From a virus, in the IMG/VR virus record IMGVR_UViG_3300021964_000015: a DNA stretch of 64,000 nt; one strand, written 5' to 3'. A program made the position numbers and the translations under genes. Position 1 is the first letter of the stretch. Each line of letters opens with the position of its first letter. The notes beneath the pieces were generated by a model. It had not been told where the DNA came from. It searched no databases and worked only from the letters and a program-made list of their open reading frames with translations. This document shows, piece by piece, positions 12,101-32,746 of the stretch.

Positions 12101-14098
12101 ATGGCATTCAGTATCCTTGAACACCTGTCCAAATTAGAAGAAAGTAATCACAAAGGCAAGTACATTTGTCCCGTATGTAATGGAAATGACTTCTCCGTTA
12201 ATTTAAGAACAGGCGCATACAATTGTTTTAATGATGATTCTGCAAAACATCGTGCAGAAATAAGAAATGTTCTTGCTCCATTGCAACGATGGGAAAGGCC
12301 ATTACGATCGCCAGGTTCCTATTGTTTTGCCTATAAAAACAAAGACAACAAAGAAGTAATTAATGTCATCAGAAATGATACTTCTGGCAAGAAATCAATC
12401 AAGCAAGAATATCCAACTGTCAATCAAAATGATCGCACTAGAAAAGCAATTATCGATGAAATTAGACATAACATTCTTCCATATCGTTATGACGAAGCAA
12501 TACAAGCTTCTGAAGCAACTGGTCTTCCCATTTTTGTTGTTGAAGGGGAACTCACTTGTGATGCAGCGTGGCAAATTGGCCTCCCTTCAATCACTTTCTT
12601 AGGTGGCAGCGGACAATACCGTGCCAATAGTGACTATTCGCAGCTTTTCCGTGGCAAAAAGATAGTACTTTGCCCCGATCGTGATGAGCCTGGTGTGGCT
12701 CTCATGAAAGAAGTGGCAGGTGATAATCCAGGTGCTCAATGGCTTTATGCCGAACCAGATAATTTTGAATGGGATAGTCTGCCACAAAATGGTGGTTATG
12801 ACCTTGCCGATTGGATTGAAGAAGGCGTCACGCAAGAACTCATCATTTCCTCCATTGTTGCTCATGATCGCCATGAAGGGAAAGATGGGCTGCCTTCATA
12901 CGAGGAAATCATCTCCACATTTGAACGCATGGTTGGCCTTTATGGCAACGATGCACGAGTGATTTTTGAAGCTCGTCAATGGATGAGTAGTAGGGGCGTC
13001 AAACTAAACACGCAAGAAGTGGAAAAGCTTCTAGAGGAAGCTCGTGATCGCGTGCATGGTCGTGAAGATCTTGAAATCTTGGATGCAAAAATCATTGCCC
13101 AATCAGAAGATTGTCGTCAATGGACGATTGCTGGCATCTTGCCTGAAAGCAGCGTGATGCTTTTAGCTGCTGCACCAGGAAGCGGTAAATCAACCATCCT
13201 TTACAACTGGGCTCTGCATGTGGCCACTGGTAGAGATTGGAGTCAGCGGCGATGCAAGCAAGGAAAAGTGCTCATCATTCAATGCGACGAACCAATTGTT
13301 GATGCTGCAGAAAAGCTACAAATCATTGGTTACGACGATGATGCATTAAGCAATGGGATGATTGATTTTATTGATCGCTGGCGTTTTAATAACATCCCTC
13401 AGCTCCTTTCCTACATCAAAAAGAACAGGCCAAGGCTCATCATGATTGATAGCCTCACATCATGCTTGGCTGGTATGGACGTTGACCTTGTGCGTTCTGA
13501 TGCTGGCAATTGCATTTATGAACTGCGTGACATTGCCAACCAATATGGTTGCTCCATCGTCATCCTCCACCACTTAAACAAAACTGGTGGCATTCGTGAT
13601 AGCTCCAGCTTTGAAGCCAATGTGAGTGAAGTGGTGAAGCTTTACCGCCCTGAGAATGCTGGCAATCCAGACGAATTTATTTTTGAATGGAGCAAAAGCA
13701 GGAGCGGCTTGAGTGGCAAGCATTTTCTCATTCGAGAATCTGCCACTTACGGCTGGTTCTATAAAGGGCCTGTTGATGGCGATCCTGAAGGTTTCATGCG
13801 TGTGGTGCACATGGCAAATAACTATCCGCATGAGCGATTCAGTCCTCATCAAATGTATGCAAGGCTTTCGCTGACAAGCACTGCACACTCACGACGCACC
13901 TTAGAGCAAGCTCGTAGGCAAGGGCTTATTGATTCATCGTGGCAAATTGGACCAGCTGGAGAGCGCGAAAGGCTTTATCACTCATGGAACTACAAAGCAC
14001 CAGAAGAAACAATGGAAGAGCCAGTTGAGGAAGAACAATTCCCCACCATTGATTCTTCTCCTTCTACAGCGCCTGATTACGACGACCTTCCTTTTTAA
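12101..14098 (+). CDS. primase-helicase (Zn finger + TOPRIM + AAA_25/RepA-like helicase)
   Basis: CPVC; VVEGE, PDRDEPG, DLADW (TOPRIM); AAPGSGKS Walker A, IMIDSL Walker B, ILHHLNK. Confidence 0.9.
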   Translation: MAFSILEHLSKLEESNHKGKYICPVCNGNDFSVNLRTGAYNCFNDDSAKHRAEIRNVLAPLQRWERPLRSPGSYCFAYKNKDNKEVINVIRNDTSGKKSIKQEYPTVNQNDRTRKAIIDEIRHNILPYRYDEAIQASEATGLPIFVVEGELTCDAAWQIGLPSITFLGGSGQYRANSDYSQLFRGKKIVLCPDRDEPGVALMKEVAGDNPGAQWLYAEPDNFEWDSLPQNGGYDLADWIEEGVTQELIISSIVAHDRHEGKDGLPSYEEIISTFERMVGLYGNDARVIFEARQWMSSRGVKLNTQEVEKLLEEARDRVHGREDLEILDAKIIAQSEDCRQWTIAGILPESSVMLLAAAPGSGKSTILYNWALHVATGRDWSQRRCKQGKVLIIQCDEPIVDAAEKLQIIGYDDDALSNGMIDFIDRWRFNNIPQLLSYIKKNRPRLIMIDSLTSCLAGMDVDLVRSDAGNCIYELRDIANQYGCSIVILHHLNKTGGIRDSSSFEANVSEVVKLYRPENAGNPDEFIFEWSKSRSGLSGKHFLIRESATYGWFYKGPVDGDPEGFMRVVHMANNYPHERFSPHQMYARLSLTSTAHSRRTLEQARRQGLIDSSWQIGPAGERERLYHSWNYKAPEETMEEPVEEEQFPTIDSSPSTAPDYDDLPF

Positions 14099-14416: not shown

Positions 14417-14517
14417 GAAAAAGGCTCAGGCGGGGTGTGGTAGACTGGTCACGGAAAGTCCCGAGCGCACCCTGTTCCAGGATCGTTCAGGATCAACTTC
14501 CCTCTCGCTGCCTGGCC

Positions 14518-14550
14518 TTCCAGCACGAGCGTCGCCCCCAAAGGCGACGC
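14518..14550 (+). repeat. isolated TTCCAG-hairpin(CCCAAA loop) unit
   Basis: TTCCAG-N5-GCGTCGCC-CCCAAA-GGCGACGC; same geometry as the units at 24.5-24.9 kb. Confidence 0.75.
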
Positions 14551-14676
14551 GGATCGATGCACTAGGCCAAGAGAATCTTTCAAAAAAAAGCTTCTCAACG
14601 CAGCTAGCATCAATCGCCTACGAAGCGTTCAGGCGAAAAGTAGCTTGTAACATTGCGAAAGAAATCAACTTCTGCA

Positions 14677-14946: not shown

Positions 14947-15127
14947 CATCGAATTGTCTGATGAAGAATGGAATGAAATGGATGCCATAAGGAGGGCCAT
15001 TGGGGATGGCCCTCCTGCCGTATCGTTTGAAAAAATGGAAAGGTTTTCTGAATTGTTTGTAAGAACCTTGCCATATGAAGGCGATACAATTGCATCAAGT
15101 ATTACGATTGACAATGCCACAGCCTGA
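14897..15127 (+). CDS. hypothetical protein
   Basis: Overlapping chain; start probably ATG 14936. Confidence 0.6.
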   Translation: MTMERKTIKKAKKMPHDIELSDEEWNEMDAIRRAIGDGPPAVSFEKMERFSELFVRTLPYEGDTIASSITIDNATA

Positions 15128-15839
15128 AATTCACTTTTCCAGCAAGGAAGAATGTACGCGCTATGCAGTGAAAGTATTGGTTGATGCTGGCATGAGGCCA
15201 GAGGAAATTGAGCGCGTAAGAGTGAAAAATAAGCCTGGTGTCAATATGGCAAAAGATCTCGTTGGTCTTAGGCGATATATGGTGCAAGAGCTTCTTGCTG
15301 CCAATATGAGCAATCGTCAAATTGCTGATGCATTGCAAATTGGTAAAGACACTGTAAATGCTGATAGACATCACGCTAGAGCTTTATACACTGAAAAACT
15401 ACTTGCGTCCGCAGACGTGCATCGGGCACGTCTGCTCAAGGAGCAAATGGATTTAAAAGAAAAGGCCCTGGAGAATTTTGAACATAGCAAACGGAAACGC
15501 ACCATCACTTTTCAAGATGGCGAAGAAAGCAATGGCAGACAAAGTATTCGTATTGAAGAAAGTGCTGGTGATGTGGGCTTTTTAAATGTTGCTAAAAATG
15601 CATTGGTGGAACAGGCTAGGTTGTTGGGCCTGCATGAATTGAAGCGTGAAGAGCAACAAGATAAAACTTATCAACAATTCCTTAAGGATTTGACCGTCAC
15701 CATTGACAAGGAAAAACAGCTCAATAGTGCTGATGAGCTGCGTCAAAATGCAGTGCCAGTGGATGTTGTAGAAGAAGATGCCAATGCAAGTCCAAATGTA
15801 ATCATGCCTTCTAAAGATTCTTTTAACCTTGATGCTTGA
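15114..15839 (+). CDS. HTH protein, terminase small subunit candidate
   Basis: HTH MSNRQIADALQIGKDTVNAD, helical middle, GD..FL....ARLLGL pattern. Confidence 0.55.
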   Translation: MPQPEIHFSSKEECTRYAVKVLVDAGMRPEEIERVRVKNKPGVNMAKDLVGLRRYMVQELLAANMSNRQIADALQIGKDTVNADRHHARALYTEKLLASADVHRARLLKEQMDLKEKALENFEHSKRKRTITFQDGEESNGRQSIRIEESAGDVGFLNVAKNALVEQARLLGLHELKREEQQDKTYQQFLKDLTVTIDKEKQLNSADELRQNAVPVDVVEEDANASPNVIMPSKDSFNLDA

Positions 15840-18702: not shown

Positions 18703-18741
18703 AGGCTTGTGATACCATTGGCAAGGAATGTTCAAGGCGCC

Positions 18742-18771
18742 TTGACGGGCGCCTTTTTTGTGCTCTATACT
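18742..18771 (+). promoter_or_regulatory. sigma70-type promoter overlapping a terminator hairpin
   Basis: TTGACG (in the loop of AAGGCGCC/GGCGCCTT) N18 TATACT. Confidence 0.65.
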
Positions 18772-19885: not shown

Positions 19886-19927
19886 GGCAGAAGCGGGGGC
19901 TCCCAAAGCCCCTGCTTCGCTGTGCTG

Positions 19928-19978
19928 TATAGTTCTGTCATCGGGGGCGAGAGCCTCCACCACCTCCTGACAGTCATG
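19928..19978 (+). promoter_or_regulatory. repeated promoter/leader unit
   Basis: TATAGT, GGGGGC-GAGA-GCCTCC hairpin, CCTGACAGTC-ATG. Confidence 0.7.
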
Positions 19979-20341: not shown

Positions 20342-20389
20342 TTGTTAAGCCAAGAGCGGGGCCACCAAAGGCCCCGCCTTTCCATGCTG

Positions 20390-20435
20390 TATAGTTCTTT
20401 TCACGGGGCGAGAGCCTCACTTCCTGATCATCATG
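20390..20435 (+). promoter_or_regulatory. repeated promoter/leader unit
   Basis: TATAGT, GGGGC-GAGA-GCCTC hairpin, CCTGATCATC-ATG. Confidence 0.7.
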
Positions 20436-20942: not shown

Positions 20943-21248
20943 ATGCATCTTGTTTGTAATTACAACAGCAACGGTCCGTATTTTGCTCCTACGCAAGGGC
21001 AATATCATGCTGCTCGTCTCAAAGACCTTATTTTCCATGTGAGGCTATGCATGGAAGATGGTGACTACCAAATAGGCGTGTTTGATGATGAAGGGCAATG
21101 TAAGGGCATCTGGGTGGATGAAAGTGAGCCCATAGACGATGGGGAAGGGGGAATGACTCTTTCTAAGCCTGATTATGTGCTGTATCGTCCTGGTGACATC
21201 AGTGCAGGCATGTGGAATTTGTATCTTCGTAAATTCAAAAGAAAATAA
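20943..21248 (+). CDS. hypothetical protein
   Basis: 101-aa ORF followed by a hairpin at 21255-21282. Confidence 0.65.
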   Translation: MHLVCNYNSNGPYFAPTQGQYHAARLKDLIFHVRLCMEDGDYQIGVFDDEGQCKGIWVDESEPIDDGEGGMTLSKPDYVLYRPGDISAGMWNLYLRKFKRK

Positions 21249-21276
21249 TGGAAAAGCCGGTCCCCCCAAAAAGGGA

Positions 21277-21423
21277 CCGGCTGGTTTCGTATCGGGAATC
21301 TTGATAACATGCGTTTATCGAGAATCTGCGTAAGCCACCAGTCAGAACCGGCTAAGTGCGTATCTGGAAATTTTGGAACCGGCTAGGGTCGTATCTAGGG
21401 TCCGGCTAGGGTCGTATCTAGGG
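21277..21423 (+). repeat. four copies of CCGGCT-N5-CGTATC
   Basis: Copies start at 21277, 21348, 21379, 21402. Confidence 0.85.
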
Positions 21424-21446
21424 AGATCCTAGTGGAGGTTTTTGAA

Positions 21447-21552
21447 AATGAGAATCATTCTCAACTAGTCCTCTTGATAATGAGAATCATTCTCAACTAG
21501 TCCTCTTGATAATGAGAATCATTCTCAACAAGCTTATTGAGAATCGTTCTCA
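21447..21552. repeat. tandem Fur-box-like palindromes (32-bp period)
   Basis: TGAGAATCATTCTCA at 21449, 21481, 21513 and TGAGAATCGTTCTCA at 21538. Confidence 0.85.
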
Positions 21553-21592
21553 TTATGCGCCTATGCGCATGGACGCATAAAGGCACGACGCC

Positions 21593-21680
21593 GTGTGCCA
21601 GTCCAGGATTGGCACACAGTACAGGCGTTCTTGTGCCAGTCCCAAATTGGCACACTGTGCCAGCCGCCAGATTGGCACAC
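21593..21680. repeat. three GTGCCA-N9/10-TGGCAC palindromes
   Basis: Start at 21595, 21633, 21657. Confidence 0.85.
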
Positions 21681-21711
21681 CTTGCAATCGAGAATCGTTC
21701 GCAATAGTGGC

Positions 21712-21764
21712 TTATGCGCCTTGAAGCATAAAGAGGCGATGCTTTTATGCGCCTTGAAGCATAA
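21712..21764. repeat. two TTATGC-N8-GCATAA palindromes
   Basis: Identical 20-mers at 21712 and 21745. Confidence 0.85.
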
Positions 21765-21795
21765 AAGGCTAGGTATAAAAAACTGCGCGAGGCTA

Positions 21796-21862
21796 TTTGA
21801 GCCCTACTGTTCTGGCCTATGCAAGCCCTACTGTTCTGGCCTGTTTGAGCCCTACTGTTCGC
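21796..21862 (+). repeat. three 24-bp-period direct repeats (AGCCCTACTGTTC core)
   Basis: Core at 21800, 21824, 21848. Confidence 0.85.
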
Positions 21863-22192
21863 CTCTTGCTTTATATGTATACAAAAGCAAAGGCGCCCGC
21901 TCAAACGGGCGCCCGCATGGTATGGGCTGCTGTTCTTGTGAGCTTTTGAGCTATGGCTTGACGGGATGGCGGTATGCATGGTACGCGCGCGGGCGCGGTT
22001 CCTTTATTGCTGCCAGCATCTCCCGGCTCGTTGTTTCCAGGCAATGCGCCAACCACGGAAACCGGCGCATTCTTCCGAAGCTTGTGACGGTTAGCACTCC
22101 GGCCTATTTTTCCGAGAAATGGCCGCGCTTGCCTTTAGTGTTCTCTCAACGGCAAACGGGAGCGATCCTGAGCCGTTGCTCTTCTGTTCTTC

Positions 22193-22450
22193 ATGCATCC
22201 CATGGCACGTATGTCACCCAGTGAGCTTGACCGCATTGCGCGTCAGGCATCCGAAGCGATCGGCGCAGATATATTCTGGCAACGCTCAGAATCAGGCCAC
22301 CACGTTATGCGCAAGTGGGGCCTAGGTGCGCAAGCTATGGCCGAATGCCTGACAATGCGGGAGGCATTCCACTACATGCAAGGCATGCGAGACGCTGCGC
22401 AATTGGCAAAGCAAGCCAAGCGCGTTGTGTTGCCTGGCGAGCCTGCCTGA
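22193..22450 (+). CDS. hypothetical protein
   Basis: First ORF after the repeat array. Confidence 0.6.
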   Translation: MHPMARMSPSELDRIARQASEAIGADIFWQRSESGHHVMRKWGLGAQAMAECLTMREAFHYMQGMRDAAQLAKQAKRVVLPGEPA

Positions 22451-22491
22451 TTCTTTCTTTCTTTCTTTAACCGTTCCTTTGCTTTAGTCTC

Positions 22492-23184
22492 ATGCGTCTT
22501 AATTTCCTTAAGTTCCATCTCTCCACTAAAAGCAGCAACGCCAAAACAGGCCCCATCGCAGTCTCAACTAGCAGCAAGGCTACGTGCTCTCCTACGTGCC
22601 CGTTCTTGCCTGAGAATGGCGGGGGATGCTATGCCGCTAGCGGGCCCTTGAATCTGCACTGGTTGCGCGTGTCAAGCGGTGAGCGTGGCCACTCCTTCGC
22701 AGTGTTCCTAGAGAAACTGCAAGCGCTGCCCAATGGTGCAGCATTCCGCCACAATCAGAGCGGGGATCTCCCACATAATTCTGGCCGCATCTCGCAAACG
22801 TTCATTCGGCGGATTGTCAAAGCAACGCAGCATCTCCGGGCTTTCACGTACACTCACCACGATATAAAGAAAGGGGACAACCTAGCACTGCTACGTTATG
22901 CCAACCGTAACGGTTTCCGCATTAACGTGAGCTGTGAGACTGAAGCAGCAGTGGACGATGCTATCAGCGCTGGATTGCCAGCAGTGTTGGTTGTTCCGTC
23001 TGACGAAAAACGCACCACGTGGCACACTTCAGGCGGAAACGTGGCGATCGTCTGCCCAGCTCAACGCAGCGATACCACCACGTGCAGCGACTGCATGCTC
23101 TGCCACAAAAGGGGGGCAAAAGTGGCCATTGCATTTCTCGCCCATGGCAACGGCAAACGTAAGGCTGAAGCCTCTCTATGCTAA
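22492..23184 (+). CDS. Cys-rich protein, Gp88-like (possible metal or Fe-S binding)
   Basis: SSNAKTG, CxxxCP...GCYA, FRHN.SGD, YTH, CPAQ...CxxCxxC. Confidence 0.6.
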   Translation: MRLNFLKFHLSTKSSNAKTGPIAVSTSSKATCSPTCPFLPENGGGCYAASGPLNLHWLRVSSGERGHSFAVFLEKLQALPNGAAFRHNQSGDLPHNSGRISQTFIRRIVKATQHLRAFTYTHHDIKKGDNLALLRYANRNGFRINVSCETEAAVDDAISAGLPAVLVVPSDEKRTTWHTSGGNVAIVCPAQRSDTTTCSDCMLCHKRGAKVAIAFLAHGNGKRKAEASLC

Positions 23185-23212
23185 TTTCCTCTCCCGTTCT
23201 TTCTTTCTGATC

Positions 23213-23374
23213 ATGCTCGTTATCATCACCACAGAAACCCATTTAGGCGGTTCTGAGCTTCTCAAACGACGCCACGAAATAAAAGCTGCATCCATTGAAG
23301 CGGCACTCTCTAAATTCTCTTTGCTGTCTGGCCTTTTGCCGGGCGAAACAATCGAAACCATCCAAGAGGTCTGA
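23213..23374 (+). CDS. hypothetical protein (53 aa)
   Basis: CTGATC-ATG start context like the other early genes. Confidence 0.5.
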   Translation: MLVIITTETHLGGSELLKRRHEIKAASIEAALSKFSLLSGLLPGETIETIQEV

Positions 23375-23377
23375 ACA

Positions 23378-23563
23378 ATGTTCACCATCACGGCTTGCGA
23401 TGAATACGGCCAAGACTACATCTTGCAAACATTCCCAGATGTAGATTCTGCCAGAGATGAGCTTAATTTTCTTCTCTATTGTCAGGACAATCTGTACAGT
23501 TACCGCCGACAGCTTGCAATTGCCGAACTCTCCGAACAATTAGAAGCCCACGACATGCCCTAG
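23378..23563 (+). CDS. hypothetical protein
   Basis: 61-aa acidic ORF followed by a terminator-like hairpin (about 23589-23621). Confidence 0.6.
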   Translation: MFTITACDEYGQDYILQTFPDVDSARDELNFLLYCQDNLYSYRRQLAIAELSEQLEAHDMP

Positions 23564-23914
23564 AAGCCGCTGCAAGGCCCGCAAAAGCAAGCCCGCTAGC
23601 ACTGCGCCTAGTGGGCTTTTTAGTGGCCTTCTAGCCTGCTAGGACGGCGTTTGAGAGTGCTGGCGTTTTGCTGCTGCTGACTGAAGAGCTTAGAGCTAAG
23701 GGGAATTTCTCTAATTCCGACCTCAAAAGTCGGGATTAACAAAAATTAATCAAAGCGCTGATCAGCACTTTTTATCAGTCAATTCTTGACCTTTTCGGCG
23801 TTCTGTGAGAGGATGGTGCAGCGCAGTAACGGCGGGATAATTCGAAAGGCGTGCCGGGCTACCCCTCCAAAAACCGACGCCACCTTCATTCATTTTTCTC
23901 TATGCACTAATGCA

Positions 23915-24442
23915 TTAAGGACAAGCGAGGTTCATTTTTGTTTGGCAGACATTGCGAGCAAGTTTATAAAGTTCCTGTTCGTTAGCGTCATTTTTAATGG
24001 CGTTGGCTCTATGGGAAACGATGATGACATTTCCTTTTACATAGCCTTTAGAGCTATCAATGCGATCGATGGAAGGACTTTCTGGGAAGGCCTTAGCTTT
24101 CACGCCAAGACCAGTTTGCACTTTCCAGCGTAATTTTATTCCAAGGTAAGGGCAATGCGAAGGGAGGCCCAATGAGCGCAAATACTCGATGTCTATATTG
24201 TGAGCAAGGTTTTTTTCTTTTGCTCTTTTTTTGGACCCCTGCAACATTTTGCTTAATTGATAAGCTTCTGGATTGGCGCGCTGAGCTGCCGCTTCTCGCC
24301 CAGTGCGACGATATTCACGCTTTCGTTTTCGTTCGCATTCTCTGCATTCTGATTGCCTTCCATCTTTTGCTTTTGTCTGTTTATTGAATTCTGAAAACGG
24401 CTTCGTTTCGCCGCATTTTGAACAAACTTTAGCTGCTTCCAT
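23915..24442 (-). CDS. HNH-like endonuclease with N-terminal Zn finger
   Basis: KVCSKCGETKP.SEF..CRECE; CPYLG..PSIDRIDSSKGYVKGNV..SHRANAIK. Confidence 0.85.
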   Translation of the reverse strand: MEAAKVCSKCGETKPFSEFNKQTKAKDGRQSECRECERKRKREYRRTGREAAAQRANPEAYQLSKMLQGSKKRAKEKNLAHNIDIEYLRSLGLPSHCPYLGIKLRWKVQTGLGVKAKAFPESPSIDRIDSSKGYVKGNVIIVSHRANAIKNDANEQELYKLARNVCQTKMNLACP

Positions 24443-24550
24443 GGAAAGCTAACAATTGGGCAAATCATAGCCATCATTCTTGAAAACGCAGTGTTGCTAT
24501 GGCGAATCAAGGCCCCAAAAGGGCCGCAGATGAGCCATATGGCGAAGCTT

Positions 24551-24947
24551 CGTTCAGAACATTCCAGCATAAAGAGCGCCCCCAAAAGGCGCTCTTTTTT
24601 CAGAACCAAAATCAGCACTTCTCTCCCATTGTTATTTCCAGTACTAAGGGCGGTCCTCAAAAGACCGCCCTGCTTCAGAACTAAAGTGAAACCATTCCAG
24701 GATTTACAGCGAAACCATTCCAAGATTTACGCTTTTTTTTCGTTGCACGCAGTATCCCCTTGCATTGACCAGTATCGCTTGAGGATTTTTTCAATCGACG
24801 CCGCTTTTGGGGCGGCGTCTAGATCTGGAAGGACATTTGCTAGTCCTGGAAGAATCGTTCAGACTTTATGTTCTGAAGATCGTCGCCGCTTTTTGGGCGG
24901 CTCCTTGTGCTGGAAGAACAGCCATTTTGCACTGGCAGTTCTGAACG
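24551..24947. other. symmetric non-coding element, replication origin candidate
   Basis: Two plus-strand and two minus-strand TTCCAG-hairpin units converge on a 20-bp direct repeat; bounded by inverted CGTTCAGAAC. Confidence 0.6.
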
Positions 24948-25243
24948 GAGGCGTCGATGGTGTGTTCGAGACTAGTCGAAAACTTATCGTGCCGTTAGAA
25001 AGTTGTCATCCGTTGCACCATGCTTAGCATAACGTCGCTGTCAAGGGCCTTTTTGTATCAAGGCGATACCAAAACAGGCGTTTTTCGAGAATATTGCCAG
25101 TAAGCTTCAGCTTTTCTTAATAATTCCTAGAGACAAAATGCTTATTGTTCGCAAATTCTGAAGATAAAGCTAAAAAGTAACTAAAACTACTTGCCTCCCA
25201 TTGTTCTTTCTTTAGCCTGAAAAAATACAGCCAATTAAATACC

Positions 25244-25432
25244 ATGTGGGACGATCTTCCCGAACCATTCATGATTGGTGCCATCAAGCTTTGGCCCGTT
25301 CATAGTCGTCCCGATATGAAATGGTTCATTGCTTACGAAGGTAAGCCGTATTATTTCCCAAGCAAATCTGCTGCCATTTTGTTCGCCAAAGATCGCCAGT
25401 CCATTGAAGATCCTGAGATGCTTTGCGATTGA
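25244..25432 (+). CDS. hypothetical protein
   Basis: 62-aa ORF after an AT-rich promoter-like region. Confidence 0.6.
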   Translation: MWDDLPEPFMIGAIKLWPVHSRPDMKWFIAYEGKPYYFPSKSAAILFAKDRQSIEDPEMLCD

Positions 25433-25528
25433 GCCGAAGAATTGATTAAGGCACCAGAAGCCGTAGCTAAACTGGTTCCGTTCAAGAGCCGCCTTTGAGG
25501 GGCGGCTCTTTCGTCTCATTCAAGATCA

Positions 25529-26956
25529 ATGACGGCAACAGAAAACAATCGCTGCATCAAAGTAGCTCGCACTGGCAGGGTTGAGAACTGGCTTAATGAC
25601 CCAGAGGGGCGGCTCGGAGTTAGCTGCACAGTATTCAACGTTCAGGATTCAATGGAGGGCAGTGACGGCATTGAAGCATCATGGCGTTTTGTTAGTCATG
25701 GTTTGCGCAATGGTGCTGGCGTAGCTGTGCATTTGTCTGATTTGCGTGCAAAAGGAAAAGAAAATGGCAAGGGGCTTGTTGCTAGTGGGCCTGTAAGTTT
25801 CGGCAAGATTTATTCCTCATTGAACGAAATCTTACGTCGTGGTGGTAAGTACAAGAATGGTGCAATTGTTTTGCATTTGGACTATACGCACGAAGATATT
25901 TTTGATTTCATTAATGCTTCGCGAAGTGAATTACCTTGGGTGAAGCGTTGCGTGAATGTAGACGATGCATTTTTTGATAATGCATCGCCCGAGCTTATTT
26001 CCGCATTGTTGAATGGTATTTCGTCTGGTGATATTTGGCTGACAAAAATTCGTTATGACCAACGTGGCAATCGCATTCGTAGCAATGTGTGCCTAGAAGT
26101 ATTTCTTCCCCATCGTGGTACGTGCCTATTGCAGCATGTAAATATGGGCGCATGCGCCATTGAAGATGTGGTTGGTGCATTTAAAGATGGCATGAGGCAA
26201 TTGTGTGAGCTTCATAGCACCACTGGCGTTGGTGATTCCGGCGAATATTTGAAGCCTGAAAATGATCGTCAAGTGGGACTTGGCATGTTGGGCCTTGCTA
26301 ATTTCTTGGCACAGGAGAAGATTTCTTATAAGGACTTTGGCCATGCCTTGAAAGCAGTGAATGATGGCGAGCCTGGTGCCATTACCAATGCACGCACTGC
26401 TGCGATCATGTTGAAGCAGGCAATGATGGAAGCAGCTGCAATTGCTCGTGAATACAACATGGACAGGGCCTTTTGCATTGCTCCTACTGCGTCATGTTCC
26501 TATCGCTATAAGGACTTAGGAGGTTTCACGACAGCCCCAGAAATTGCCCCTCCCATCGCTCGTCATGTTGATCGCGACAGCGGCACGTTTGGTGTGGAGA
26601 GCTTTGATTATGGCGAAGTGGAAACTGCTGCGGAAGTGGGCTGGGAAGACTACAAGCGCGTGGCTGATGAATTAGTACGCATGTATCAATCCACTGGATT
26701 ATTTCATGGCTATTCGTTTAATTCATGGTCTGATGTGGTCATTTATGACGAAGCATTCCTTCGTGATTGGCTAGCATCACCACAGACAAGCCTTTACTAT
26801 TCGTTGCAAGTTCTTCCGGACACGCAACGTAAAGATGACGCCTATGCGGCGCTAGATGACGATTTTAAGAGCATGTTTGGTCTCAATGAAGAGACTGAGC
26901 AGAGTTCTGCAGCTTGTGATCTAGAGGCTGGATTTTGTAGCGCATGCGCTGAATAG
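25529..26956 (+). CDS. nrdA: ribonucleotide reductase alpha subunit, class I, short cyanophage type
   Basis: VSC, SNVCLE active-site loop, IAPTASCS, SLYY tyrosine pair, C-terminal CxxC. Confidence 0.9.
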   Translation: MTATENNRCIKVARTGRVENWLNDPEGRLGVSCTVFNVQDSMEGSDGIEASWRFVSHGLRNGAGVAVHLSDLRAKGKENGKGLVASGPVSFGKIYSSLNEILRRGGKYKNGAIVLHLDYTHEDIFDFINASRSELPWVKRCVNVDDAFFDNASPELISALLNGISSGDIWLTKIRYDQRGNRIRSNVCLEVFLPHRGTCLLQHVNMGACAIEDVVGAFKDGMRQLCELHSTTGVGDSGEYLKPENDRQVGLGMLGLANFLAQEKISYKDFGHALKAVNDGEPGAITNARTAAIMLKQAMMEAAAIAREYNMDRAFCIAPTASCSYRYKDLGGFTTAPEIAPPIARHVDRDSGTFGVESFDYGEVETAAEVGWEDYKRVADELVRMYQSTGLFHGYSFNSWSDVVIYDEAFLRDWLASPQTSLYYSLQVLPDTQRKDDAYAALDDDFKSMFGLNEETEQSSAACDLEAGFCSACAE

Positions 26957-27804: not shown

Positions 27805-27868
27805 GGGAAGCTAAGACAGCGCCGAGCACATAGCCCAGAAGAGCCAGGTGCAATTCCTGGCCTTCCCA
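27805..27868 (+). pseudogene. degenerate tRNA-like element (CAT at anticodon position, no D-arm)
   Basis: GGGAAG/CTTCCC-A acceptor, CCAGG-TGCAATT-CCTGG T-arm; weak anticodon stem. Confidence 0.5.
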
Positions 27869-27894
27869 TTGTTTCCTTTTCATCGTCAGTTGCA

Positions 27895-31372: not shown

Positions 31373-32746
31373 TTACAGGAAATTTTCAAGCCAATTGGCT
31401 TCATCATCTTTATTGGCTGCATGAATGCCTGCCGCCAATGCAAATGCATGGTCGTCAATACCAGTTTGCTTACCACCAGTGACTGACCATTGTCCACCAG
31501 CCTTATAGACAACAGTGAGGTTTTTGATTTCGGAAATAGCCTTTTCGTGGTTATAGATGTTGACTTGCCCAGCATTGAACAATTCGCGCATTTTTGAAAA
31601 TGCTTTTGTCTTGGAGCTAAGTGTCCAAGTGAGTTCTTCAATGGGGAAATCACCAGAGAGTGCTTGAATGGTGCCAGCACTGTTGTATTGGTCCATGACA
31701 ATCTTTTCAAACACATATAGCTTGTGTTGTTCTCGTATCCAATCTTCCACTGCATTGATATTCACTTCTTTCCTTCCATTGATTTCAAAATCAGCCACAA
31801 ACGTGTGGAATTTATCCACCACTAAAGTTCCATTATCAAAATGAACAATACAAGCAGTGTAATTGTCTCGACCAATGCCGCCGCGAGCAGGGTCAAGAGA
31901 AAGGACGTAAGAACCAACAAAACGCTCTTCTGGAGGAAGAGCTTTCCTTTTATCATCAATGCACGCTTCAACAACATCAGGAGAAATTAGGGCAGAAAGA
32001 TTAGCTGAGAATTGAGCGCCATATTCAACGTTAAATTTATCTGGATCACGCTGGCGTTCTAGATCAAGGAATTCACGAGAGATGGTTGGGTTCATCTCCC
32101 ATGTTGGGAGGTTTACTGCTTGAAGGTGAGGAAATCTTCCTGATGCTGCTTCTTTGAAATGTTGATAGAAGAGTCCATCAGTTAGCCATGGTGAGGATAG
32201 TTCAAGGATTTTGCCATCTTTACCGAACTGTGCAACTGCTGGCGAGAGTGCTTGATAAATGCCATTAGCGCCCGAGTTTGCATCTCCATCAACGGCAAAT
32301 GCGAGTTCGTCAAACACGCAAGCGCAACATGCAAGACCACGAGCGGCCCTACCAGAAGTGGGAATTGCTTTGAATACACAACCATTGCTCATTTCTAATT
32401 GATCTGCAGTTTCGCGGGCGATTTCTTGCGCGAAAGGGCTATCAAGGATGAGCTGACGGATGTTATTAAGGGCAATACGGCTTTGGTCTTGACTATTGGC
32501 AACGGTAAGGACGTACCACTTTTCTCCTTTTCTTACTTTCGCTTTGTATTTATCTTCTAAAACAAAGCAAATGTAAACGCAGGCTACTGCGGCCATCAAC
32601 GTTTTACCGCTGCGTCGTCCAAGTGCCCATGTTGCTTGTGAATAGCCTCCTGCGAAAAAGCTATCAAGAATTTCGGACTGTTTTGGATAGAGTTCAAGAC
32701 GCAGAGCGTGCTTAGCGAAATCAGAGCAAGAAAGCCTGGTCATCAC
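31373..32746 (-). CDS. terL: terminase large subunit
   Basis: LYPKQ, GRRSGKT, VFDE, SSP, SLDPA nuclease motif, DDHAFA. Confidence 0.92.
   Translation of the reverse strand: MMTRLSCSDFAKHALRLELYPKQSEILDSFFAGGYSQATWALGRRSGKTLMAAVACVYICFVLEDKYKAKVRKGEKWYVLTVANSQDQSRIALNNIRQLILDSPFAQEIARETADQLEMSNGCVFKAIPTSGRAARGLACCACVFDELAFAVDGDANSGANGIYQALSPAVAQFGKDGKILELSSPWLTDGLFYQHFKEAASGRFPHLQAVNLPTWEMNPTISREFLDLERQRDPDKFNVEYGAQFSANLSALISPDVVEACIDDKRKALPPEERFVGSYVLSLDPARGGIGRDNYTACIVHFDNGTLVVDKFHTFVADFEINGRKEVNINAVEDWIREQHKLYVFEKIVMDQYNSAGTIQALSGDFPIEELTWTLSSKTKAFSKMRELFNAGQVNIYNHEKAISEIKNLTVVYKAGGQWSVTGGKQTGIDDHAFALAAGIHAANKDDEANWLENFL

Follow-up and report, generated by a model that had tools for sequence, protein, structure and literature searches.

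The gene-free stretch and its hairpin units

The DNA analysed here, hereafter the window, is a stretch of 64,000 nucleotides from IMG/VR record IMGVR_UViG_3300021964_000015 and belongs to a Synechococcus siphovirus of the S-CBS4 group; among isolates, S-CBS4 alone shows DNA similarity to it. Our subject is an element of four hairpin units, U1 to U4, at 24551-24947, which forms the core of a non-coding stretch of ~780 nt without genes (24443-25216). This stretch parts a leftward gene unit (endonuclease VII) from a rightward one that comprises a small open reading frame (ORF), ribonucleotide reductase and late genes. Comparison with homologous regions shows that seven or more stem-loops predicted in 24443-25216 are under selection for pairing.

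A preliminary description, made from the letters of the window, had presented each unit as TTCCAG followed by a hairpin and, in three cases, by TTCAGAAC, with two units on the plus strand and two mirrored on the minus strand. Its coordinates proved right for each of the four units, for the two central 20-mers and for the outer pair of CGTTCAGAAC copies, and its spacings of 19-20 nt (TTCCAG to loop) and 37-38 nt (TTCCAG to TTCAGAAC) hold. The parts of the element are as follows.

24551..24560, plus strand: outer left copy of CGTTCAGAAC, a palindrome GTTC-A-GAAC
24562..24606, plus strand: unit U1, with TTCCAG at 24562, a hairpin at 24571-24597 (loop CCCAAAA) and TTCAGAAC at 24599-24606
24636..24681, plus strand: unit U2, with TTCCAG at 24636, a 9-bp hairpin at 24647-24671 (loop CTCAAAA) and TTCAGAAC at 24674-24681
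24682..24727, plus strand: two tandem repeats of 23 nt, each with CATTCCARGATTTAC; GAAACCATTCCA(G/A)GATTTAC stands at 24688 and 24711
24787..24830, minus strand: unit U4, with the hairpin 24797-24819 (GACGCCGC-TTTTGGG-GCGGCGTC) followed by CTGGAA (plus strand), and without TTCAGAAC
24870..24915, minus strand: unit U3, with TTCCAG, TTCAGAAC and a weak hairpin at 24885-24901 that has a perfect stem of 5 bp
24938..24947, minus strand: outer right copy of CGTTCAGAAC, the inverse of the left copy, present in this lineage only

These motifs are clustered. Five of the six TTCAGAAC copies in the 64 kb fall in 24553-24945, less than 400 nt; six of the 51 TTCCAG matches lie in 24562-24915, three of them plus on the left and three minus on the right; and CYCAAAAR has five of its 18 matches in 24514-24897. 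Folded as single-stranded DNA, the units gave z-scores against shuffles of -5.6 (U1), -4.3 (U2) and -4.5 (U4), and only -2.0 for U3. From the clustering of the motifs and the folding of U1, U2 and U4 far beyond shuffles, we conclude that the element exists as described and cannot be put down to chance. U1, U2 and U4 have 8-10 perfect pairs, and U3 has five. As genome-wide sites, GCGWCGC and TTCCAGSA are not enriched.

U1 consists of a 10-bp A-tract/GC/T-tract hairpin, then T6, then TTCAGAAC, and by this anatomy looks like a bidirectional intrinsic terminator. The T6 lies on the plus strand; U2 is followed by T3-T5 in many relatives and has weak minus-strand tails, and on both strands U3 and U4 lack such a tail. 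A terminator consensus scanner called none of U1-U4.

The stretch has further parts. Of these, H0, hairpin X, boxes A and B and the complementarity of segments b and d had escaped the preliminary description, as had a sixth, paralogous unit outside the element (14518-14550). In the following list, both clades means the close relatives of the window and a more distant clade described below.

24498..24539, plus strand: H0, a fifth hairpin, in three tiers (TATGGC/GCCATA, ATC/GAT and GGCCC-CAAAA-GGGCC) with a GA/GA internal loop
24617..24641, plus strand: pyrimidine-rich box CTTCTCTCCCATTGTTATTTCCAG, kept in both clades, with similar boxes at 25190-25215 and 27858-27880
24733..24740, plus strand: T8 tract, T5-T7 in relatives and in some of them after a weak hairpin
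24742..24772, plus strand: box A, GTTGCACGCAnTnTCCCCTTGCATTnACCAG, nearly invariant and the centre of the motif polarity
24794..24802, plus strand: segment b, ATCGACGCC, complementary to segment d and shared in part with the 5' arm of the U4 hairpin
24830..24847, plus strand: hairpin X, AGGAC-ATTTGCTA-GTCCT, whose 17-mer is exact in all recovered relatives and was itself the search pattern that recovered many of them
24950..24958, plus strand: segment d, GGCGTCGAT, which pairs with segment b, 150 nt upstream
25003..25035, plus strand: box B, a sigma-70-like TTGTCA-16-TAGCAT overlapping the conserved GTTGCACnATGCnTAGCATAACGT
25050..25074, plus strand: hairpin H5, TTTTGTATC...GATACCAAAA, its sequence kept in both clades
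25198..25216, plus strand: second pyrimidine box with CCATTGTT, ending at TTTAG, ahead of the small ORF

H0 is flanked by a direct repeat, TATGGCGAA, and folds as DNA with a z-score of -3.6. Box B is the probable rightward promoter of the small-ORF/reductase operon. Other promoter candidates, picked by hand, failed: box A; the loops or TTCAGA in the role of a -35 box; and AACAAT, which is complementary to CCATTGTT, in that of a -10 box. The -35-like TTCAGA has no -10 box 16-18 nt further on in U1, U3 or the outer copies, and U2 is followed only by a weak CAGGAT. The window has 18 copies of CCATTGTT, where 3.6 would be expected; its intergenic plus-strand copies at 24626, 25198 and 27866 share a longer box, YTYCCCATTGTTnTTTCY, and two of the three stand shortly before start codons.

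A protein-coding reading of the element was rejected. The ORFs at 24491-25027 (+) and 24253-24723 (-) have no Pfam match, and the relatives show many indels whose lengths are not multiples of three, as well as indels of whole units, which break both frames. The region contains no tRNA or tmRNA, and nothing in it matched Rfam 15 at the gathering threshold (best sub-threshold E 0.47-8, far below the cut-off). Literature on S-CBS4 termini, cyanophage origins and the phage c2 origin yielded nothing usable, and the region is not described in Rfam or in the literature searched.

The immediate flanks are occupied as follows.

23915..24442, minus strand: endonuclease VII / HNH-type gene of 175 aa (PHROG endonuclease VII, 1e-36), reading away from the element; a 138-aa Endonuclease_7 gene occupies the equivalent place in relatives
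25244-25432, plus strand: conserved 62-aa ORF on the right flank, ahead of the reductase gene
25484-25510, plus strand: hairpin between the 62-aa ORF and the reductase gene
25529-26956, plus strand: ribonucleotide reductase gene (Pfam), its protein 85% identical to S-CBS4 gp001

Farther away lie the primase-helicase gene (12101-14098), a large terminase homologue (31373-32746, minus strand) and the portal gene (32835). The protein encoded at 15075-15839 carries the PHROG 645 label RNase E, as in the S-CBS4 annotation, and has only weak helix-turn-helix matches in Pfam (GerE, HTH_23); it may be a mis-annotated DNA-binding protein.

Conservation and selection on pairing

To compare the stretch among phages, we collected homologous loci by a search with the reductase protein, which gave 80 loci in viral contigs, and by a second query with the 17-mer of hairpin X, which gave further viral and metagenome contigs. 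Matches of the 17-mer in unrelated contigs were due to chance, lay inside coding sequence and were excluded. After removal of chance matches and duplicates, 27 distinct homologous regions were left, and in these relatives the region is non-coding and syntenic. The blocks kept are H0 with the outer-left CGTTCAGAAC, the pyrimidine box with U2, the T tract and box A, followed by U4 with hairpin X, some hairpin at the place of U3, segment d, box B, H5 and the second pyrimidine box.

The four units differ in their history. U4 is near invariant among relatives and U2 is the most widely conserved unit. U1 is present in few lineages and cleanly missing elsewhere, as by gain or loss of a whole unit, and the U3 of the window is a copy of the U4 type from another lineage (L173), unlike the U3 of most relatives. 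The repeated TTCAGAAC is not found in relatives, where only the copy at the outer left, beside H0, is conserved. Likewise, the 23-nt central repeats number two in the window, three in one 97%-identical relative and none in the other 25 relatives.

That relative, L241 (Ga0070746_10023757), is 97% identical to window 24431-25290 throughout, and the third 23-nt repeat is the main difference. In L321 (IMG/VR 3300006919_002224), the first 141 residues of the primase-helicase are 100% identical to those of the window. Because of this near-identity, we take the window phage or a near twin to be present in public metagenomes.

Every close relative shares a polarity of short motifs: plus-strand TCCAG lies to the left of box A (1-3 copies) and CTGGA to its right (2-6 copies), with irregular spacings of 25-42 nt. 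The mirror symmetry that had been described for the element is thus conserved among close relatives at the level of TCCAG/CTGGA polarity, whereas the exact four-unit design is specific to the lineage.

In a distant clade (reductase ~73% identical), the region has no DNA that can be aligned to that of the window, yet its architecture is analogous. It contains a hairpin between CCAGAA and CTCAGAAG, also GAAACCAATGATTTTT, a chain of covarying hairpins, the same H5 hairpin and a covarying long-range helix of GACG(C/T)TCC with GGA(G/A)CGTC. At the place of box B, this clade has a canonical TTGAnA-17-TATCGT promoter. The loop sequence of the units is not kept there, and U2 has no plus-strand T tail.

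In many relatives an ORF of ~220 aa (L084:2975-3643), which has no Pfam or PHROG match, sits after box B and replaces H5. It is absent from the window and has homologues in L089, L091, L095, L106, L163, L165, L167, L170, L174, L178 and L183; from this distribution, it behaves like a mobile cassette.

Compensatory changes carry the case for selection on pairing. Among the 16 distinct sequences of H0, 96% of the cells of its 14 pairs are paired and four pairs have changed on both sides, a level of pairing that was reached by 0-2 of 500 shuffles. U2 has at least six unrelated stem sequences in the relatives, all in one geometry. In consensus folds, double-sided changes affect 8 of 39 pairs in the right half and 8 of 21 in the left half, and several hairpins of the distant clade also show compensatory change. 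A further pairing joins segments b and d, which in 25 of 27 relatives retain 8 nt or more of complementarity over a distance of 150-190 nt. This helix of 9-11 nt is seldom matched in shuffled controls, is present in the minimum-energy plus-strand RNA fold of the right half (z-score -3.2) and covaries in three variants, AGCGACGCC/GGCGTCGCT, ATCGACGCC/GGCGTCGAT (the window lineage) and GCGTCGCC/GGCGACGC. The compensatory changes in H0, U2 and b-d confirm the proposal of the preliminary description that selection acts on secondary structure rather than on stem sequence.

Because segment b overlaps the 5' arm of U4, the b-d and U4 pairings are mutually exclusive. The variable distance between b and d, together with this competition with a local hairpin, points to a folded single strand and hardly to proteins on duplex DNA.

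As to which strand folds, and whether as RNA or as DNA, the evidence is mixed; the following observations lean to the plus strand, and contrary ones are given below. The GA/GA internal loop of H0, invariant on the plus strand, favours folding of that strand, given the general properties of tandem G.A pairs. Where pairs are predicted on both strands in the distant clade, the plus strand has 26 G.T against 11 A.C, and these wobble counts favour the plus strand weakly. The T tracts that follow hairpins are all on the plus strand. A U-rich-first loop marked the transcribed strand in 8 of 10 gene-end hairpins; as a strand test it was dropped because the cassettes at 19893 and 20356, described below, contradict it.

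A possible transcription hub and its alternatives

We propose, with a probability of roughly 40%, that the element forms the central part of a conserved transcription hub without genes, which acts at the RNA level and is made of the phage's own hairpin cassettes. U1 and U2, with their A-tract, GC stem and T-tract, would work as bidirectional intrinsic terminators insulating both gene units; cyanobacteria are not known to have Rho, hence the weight of intrinsic terminators in this proposal. The right half (b, U4, X, U3 and d) would fold into a multi-hairpin domain of ~165-190 nt, which the b-d helix would close just upstream of box B. Segment b, for which the 3' arm of U4 and segment d are alternative partners, might provide a switch that governs read-through or promoter use for the reductase operon. 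The hub would thus work mainly through folding of the transcript, as a structured leader ahead of the reductase promoter, and the mirror look of this phage would have arisen by duplication and swapping of units.

Consistent with such a hub, besides the synteny of the non-coding region, its compensatory changes and the b-d helix, are the terminator anatomy of U1 and U2, the occurrence of the same loop type ahead of -10 boxes elsewhere, and the promoter-like character of box B in both clades. The behaviour of the units as modules supports it as well: U1 is gained or lost whole, U3 has been replaced, an extra unit exists at 14518, an ORF has been inserted, and endonuclease genes lie nearby.

The hairpin type recurs through the genome. 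Among the 41 strongest hairpins of the window, ~18 are GC stems with CYCAAA or TTTGRG loops, several of which are gene-end terminators. The hairpins at 18734-18771, 19893-19933 and 20356-20395 directly precede the -10 box TGCTnTATAnT of the next small gene, and on this arrangement we class them as putative composite terminator/promoter cassettes in a siphovirus, similar to promoter-early stem-loops (PeSL). In the 18734 hairpin the loop, TTGACG, is itself the -35 box. A paralogous unit lies near the primase-helicase gene:

14475..14550, plus strand: TTCCAGGATCGTTCAGGATC, then TTCCAGCACGA-GCGTCGCC-CCCAAA-GGCGACGC; the hairpin unit spans 14518-14550

It stands in the intergenic stretch 14418-14676, 380 nt downstream of the primase-helicase gene, and is ~70% alike to U3. 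Among relatives of the primase-helicase, of which only ones 64-75% identical were available for comparison, the 14518 unit was not found at the same place. The same intergenic stretch has an extended -10-like TGgTAGACT at 14439-14447. CTGGAA was considered as a general terminator tail, of which the window has three examples, but it is not enriched past hairpins downstream of the reductase in 42 relatives. Since CTGGA is not general after hairpins, the pentamer arrays would be specific to the proposed hub.

PeSL cassettes in T4-type phages cluster, degrade and mediate gain and loss of gene cassettes (PMC4122927; PMC2839356). The units of the window resemble them in being short stem-loop modules with variable stems and conserved flanking boxes, repeated in plastic, endonuclease-rich regions (PMC2839356, PMC4122927), and in being gained, lost and swapped whole; the window also has hairpin-then--10 cassettes before genes. 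In contrast to PeSL cassettes, the units of the element have no properly spaced -35/-10 boxes and no genes between them, and their polarity is mirrored around a conserved box. The parts of the region that are not units (H0, box A, X and the b-d helix) are conserved across clades, and the phage is a cyanosiphovirus.

Like intrinsic (Rho-independent) bidirectional terminators, U1 and most U2 homologues combine an A-tract and a T-tract with a GC-rich stem, here of 8-11 bp, and a loop, here of 6-7 nt. U3 and U4, on the other hand, have no T tract, all units carry extra flanking motifs, and the junction is divergent rather than convergent. A third comparison is with the boxB hairpins of lambda nutL and nutR, which have a 5-bp stem and a pentaloop and lie on divergent early transcripts. 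Like these, the units are small hairpins with A-rich loops, symmetric on the two arms of a divergent early region; unlike them, they have stems of 8-10 bp and loops of 6-8 nt, and neither a boxA-like consensus nor an N-like protein was identified.

Several results weigh against a transcription hub. Generic sigma-70 scans for a promoter inside the element gave nothing beyond box B, and the early -10 consensus TGYTNTATANT does not occur in the element. U4 and U3, because they have no T tail on either strand, are not classical terminators, and the oriented CTGGA arrays are unexplained by termination. In the right half, both strands fold better than shuffles (z-scores of -3.2 for the plus strand and -4.8 for the other), and in one H0 variant a plus-strand A.C mismatch corresponds to a minus-strand G.U pair. 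Finally, the very high primary conservation of H0, box A and X could equally fit a protein that binds DNA.

The same structures might instead belong to one or more independent small non-coding RNA genes, which we consider improbable. Such an RNA could be a plus-strand transcript of ~105-140 nt with H0 at its 5' end, the single-stranded pyrimidine box further in and a terminator supplied by U1 or U2; a second RNA, of ~190 nt, would cover the b-d domain. The three covarying tiers of H0 with their invariant plus-strand GA/GA internal loop would suit such a gene, as would the single-stranded box between H0 and U2, conserved in both clades, the plus-strand T tails after U1 (T6) and, in many relatives, U2, and the retention of the b-d closing helix. 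However, no promoter was found upstream of H0, U2 in the distant clade is without a plus-strand T tail, there is no Rfam match, and the evidence on the folding strand is mixed (26 G.T against 11 A.C, and the contrary H0 variant).

Less likely than the hub, but more so than small RNA genes and a serious rival, is a replication origin, which might be bidirectional and might depend on a structured transcript for activation or priming. Initiation would take place at a core of box A and the central repeats, and replication proteins on the diverging forks would use the outward CTGGA arrays and hairpins as polar sites. In favour of an origin is the mirror polarity of TCCAG/CTGGA around box A in all close relatives. 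In addition, the cumulative GC skew over 17-30 kb has a local minimum at 24,769, within box A, the 23-nt repeats next to the T tract vary between two and three copies in genomes 97% identical, and the paralogous unit lies close downstream of the primase-helicase gene. Against an origin, the switch in skew follows in part from loops that are C-rich on the left and G-rich on the right and is confounded by gene direction too, the primase-helicase gene is 10 kb off, and the S-CBS4 GenBank record is without the whole block, though that record may be incomplete. The preliminary description had favoured an origin at which the hairpins serve as loading or priming sites for the primase-helicase. We found this unsupported, as there is no AT-rich unwinding element (AT 0.46-0.60 in 80-nt windows, 24500-25000), the 23-nt repeats and the repeated TTCAGAAC are absent from other relatives, and the number of units varies. 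Nor are the C(C/T)CAAAA loops peculiar to an origin, since CYCAAA/TTTGRG loops are common genome-wide and occur in ordinary gene cassettes.

A better candidate for a classical origin lies ~3 kb to the left, at 21277-21915. This gene-free region has several families of direct and inverted repeats, denser than those of the element, and looks by its repeats more like a classical iteron origin than the element does. An iteron array comprises at least three direct repeats of ~17-23 bp, conserved as initiator sites, and the element has two 23-nt repeats in the window.

Known origins offer partial parallels. That of the lactococcal phage c2 is non-coding, lies between divergent gene blocks and needs an untranslated transcript, and ColE1 RNA II and T4 oriF are likewise cases of origins that depend on a transcript. 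The stretch resembles these in that it is free of genes, has many repeats and hairpins, lies where transcription diverges and could involve a structured untranslated RNA; it differs in having no AT-rich stretch and no sequence similarity to them. In the SV40 core origin and in archaeal origins, pentamers and origin recognition boxes, respectively, flank an unwinding element with opposite polarity. The short oriented repeats of the stretch also have opposite polarity on either side of a centre, but their spacing is irregular (25-42 nt), covarying hairpins stand among them, and no unwinding element is seen.

RNA and DNA functions could also be combined. One or more undescribed large structured RNAs might be part of a bidirectional origin activated by transcription, in which box A would fire outward transcripts; the covarying hairpin domains of these (H0-U2 on one arm, b-d on the other) would act with the polar CTGGA sites to place the primase-helicase on each arm. 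We give this combination about as little credence as the independent RNA genes.

Genome ends, the S-CBS4 record and significance

The proposed transcription hub also has to be weighed against a role in packaging. The stretch could be a pac or cos region adjoining a physical genome end at ~25216, with repeats that bind the small terminase subunit. In phage P1, oriented hexamers are clustered on both sides of the pac cut site. The S-CBS4 record has its first base at the equivalent of window 25216, and an unrelated 20-kb metagenome contig, L138, begins at most 1 nt from the homologous position; these starts are a weak hint at a physical end. By a rough count over the 80 loci, contig ends are ~2x commoner within 4 kb upstream of the reductase gene than within 4 kb downstream. 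Nevertheless, we regard packaging as very unlikely. Seventeen other contigs read through the equivalent of 25216, the large terminase gene is 6 kb away on the other strand, the S-CBS4 record has its other end not next to this position but 4-5 kb to the left, and covarying stems are unexpected for sites bound as double-stranded DNA. Nine of the 80 contigs (L083-L162) begin within ~400 nt upstream of the reductase gene. The distribution of contig ends suggests that something in the region breaks assemblies, whether repeats, hairpins, variation or real ends.

The S-CBS4 record (NC_016766) ends inside a homologue of the window ORF 20943-21248 and starts just past the second pyrimidine box. Over its last 435 bases and its first 600-700, the record can be aligned right to its ends with metagenomic relatives, at 91-96% identity, and between the positions of these ends the relatives carry 4-5.2 kb (L169, L170 and L186), which corresponds to about window 21150-25216. 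On these alignments, the S-CBS4 record probably lacks 4-5 kb that include both gene-free repeat regions, by an assembly gap or a deletion. Because a gap or deletion may explain the missing block, the record is no argument that the element is dispensable. The probable loss matters to those who use the record as a reference.

Metagenomes from estuaries, the sea and fresh water commonly contain S-CBS4-like siphoviruses, and the region is found in dozens of independent contigs. It presents a compact conserved set: the hairpin H0 with its three tiers, a long-range helix, which encloses ~190 nt and rivals a local hairpin, and oriented pentamers around an invariant box. If it acts on RNA, it would be an undescribed regulatory RNA ahead of a phage operon for nucleotide metabolism; if it acts on DNA, it would mark the origin of a widespread phage group.

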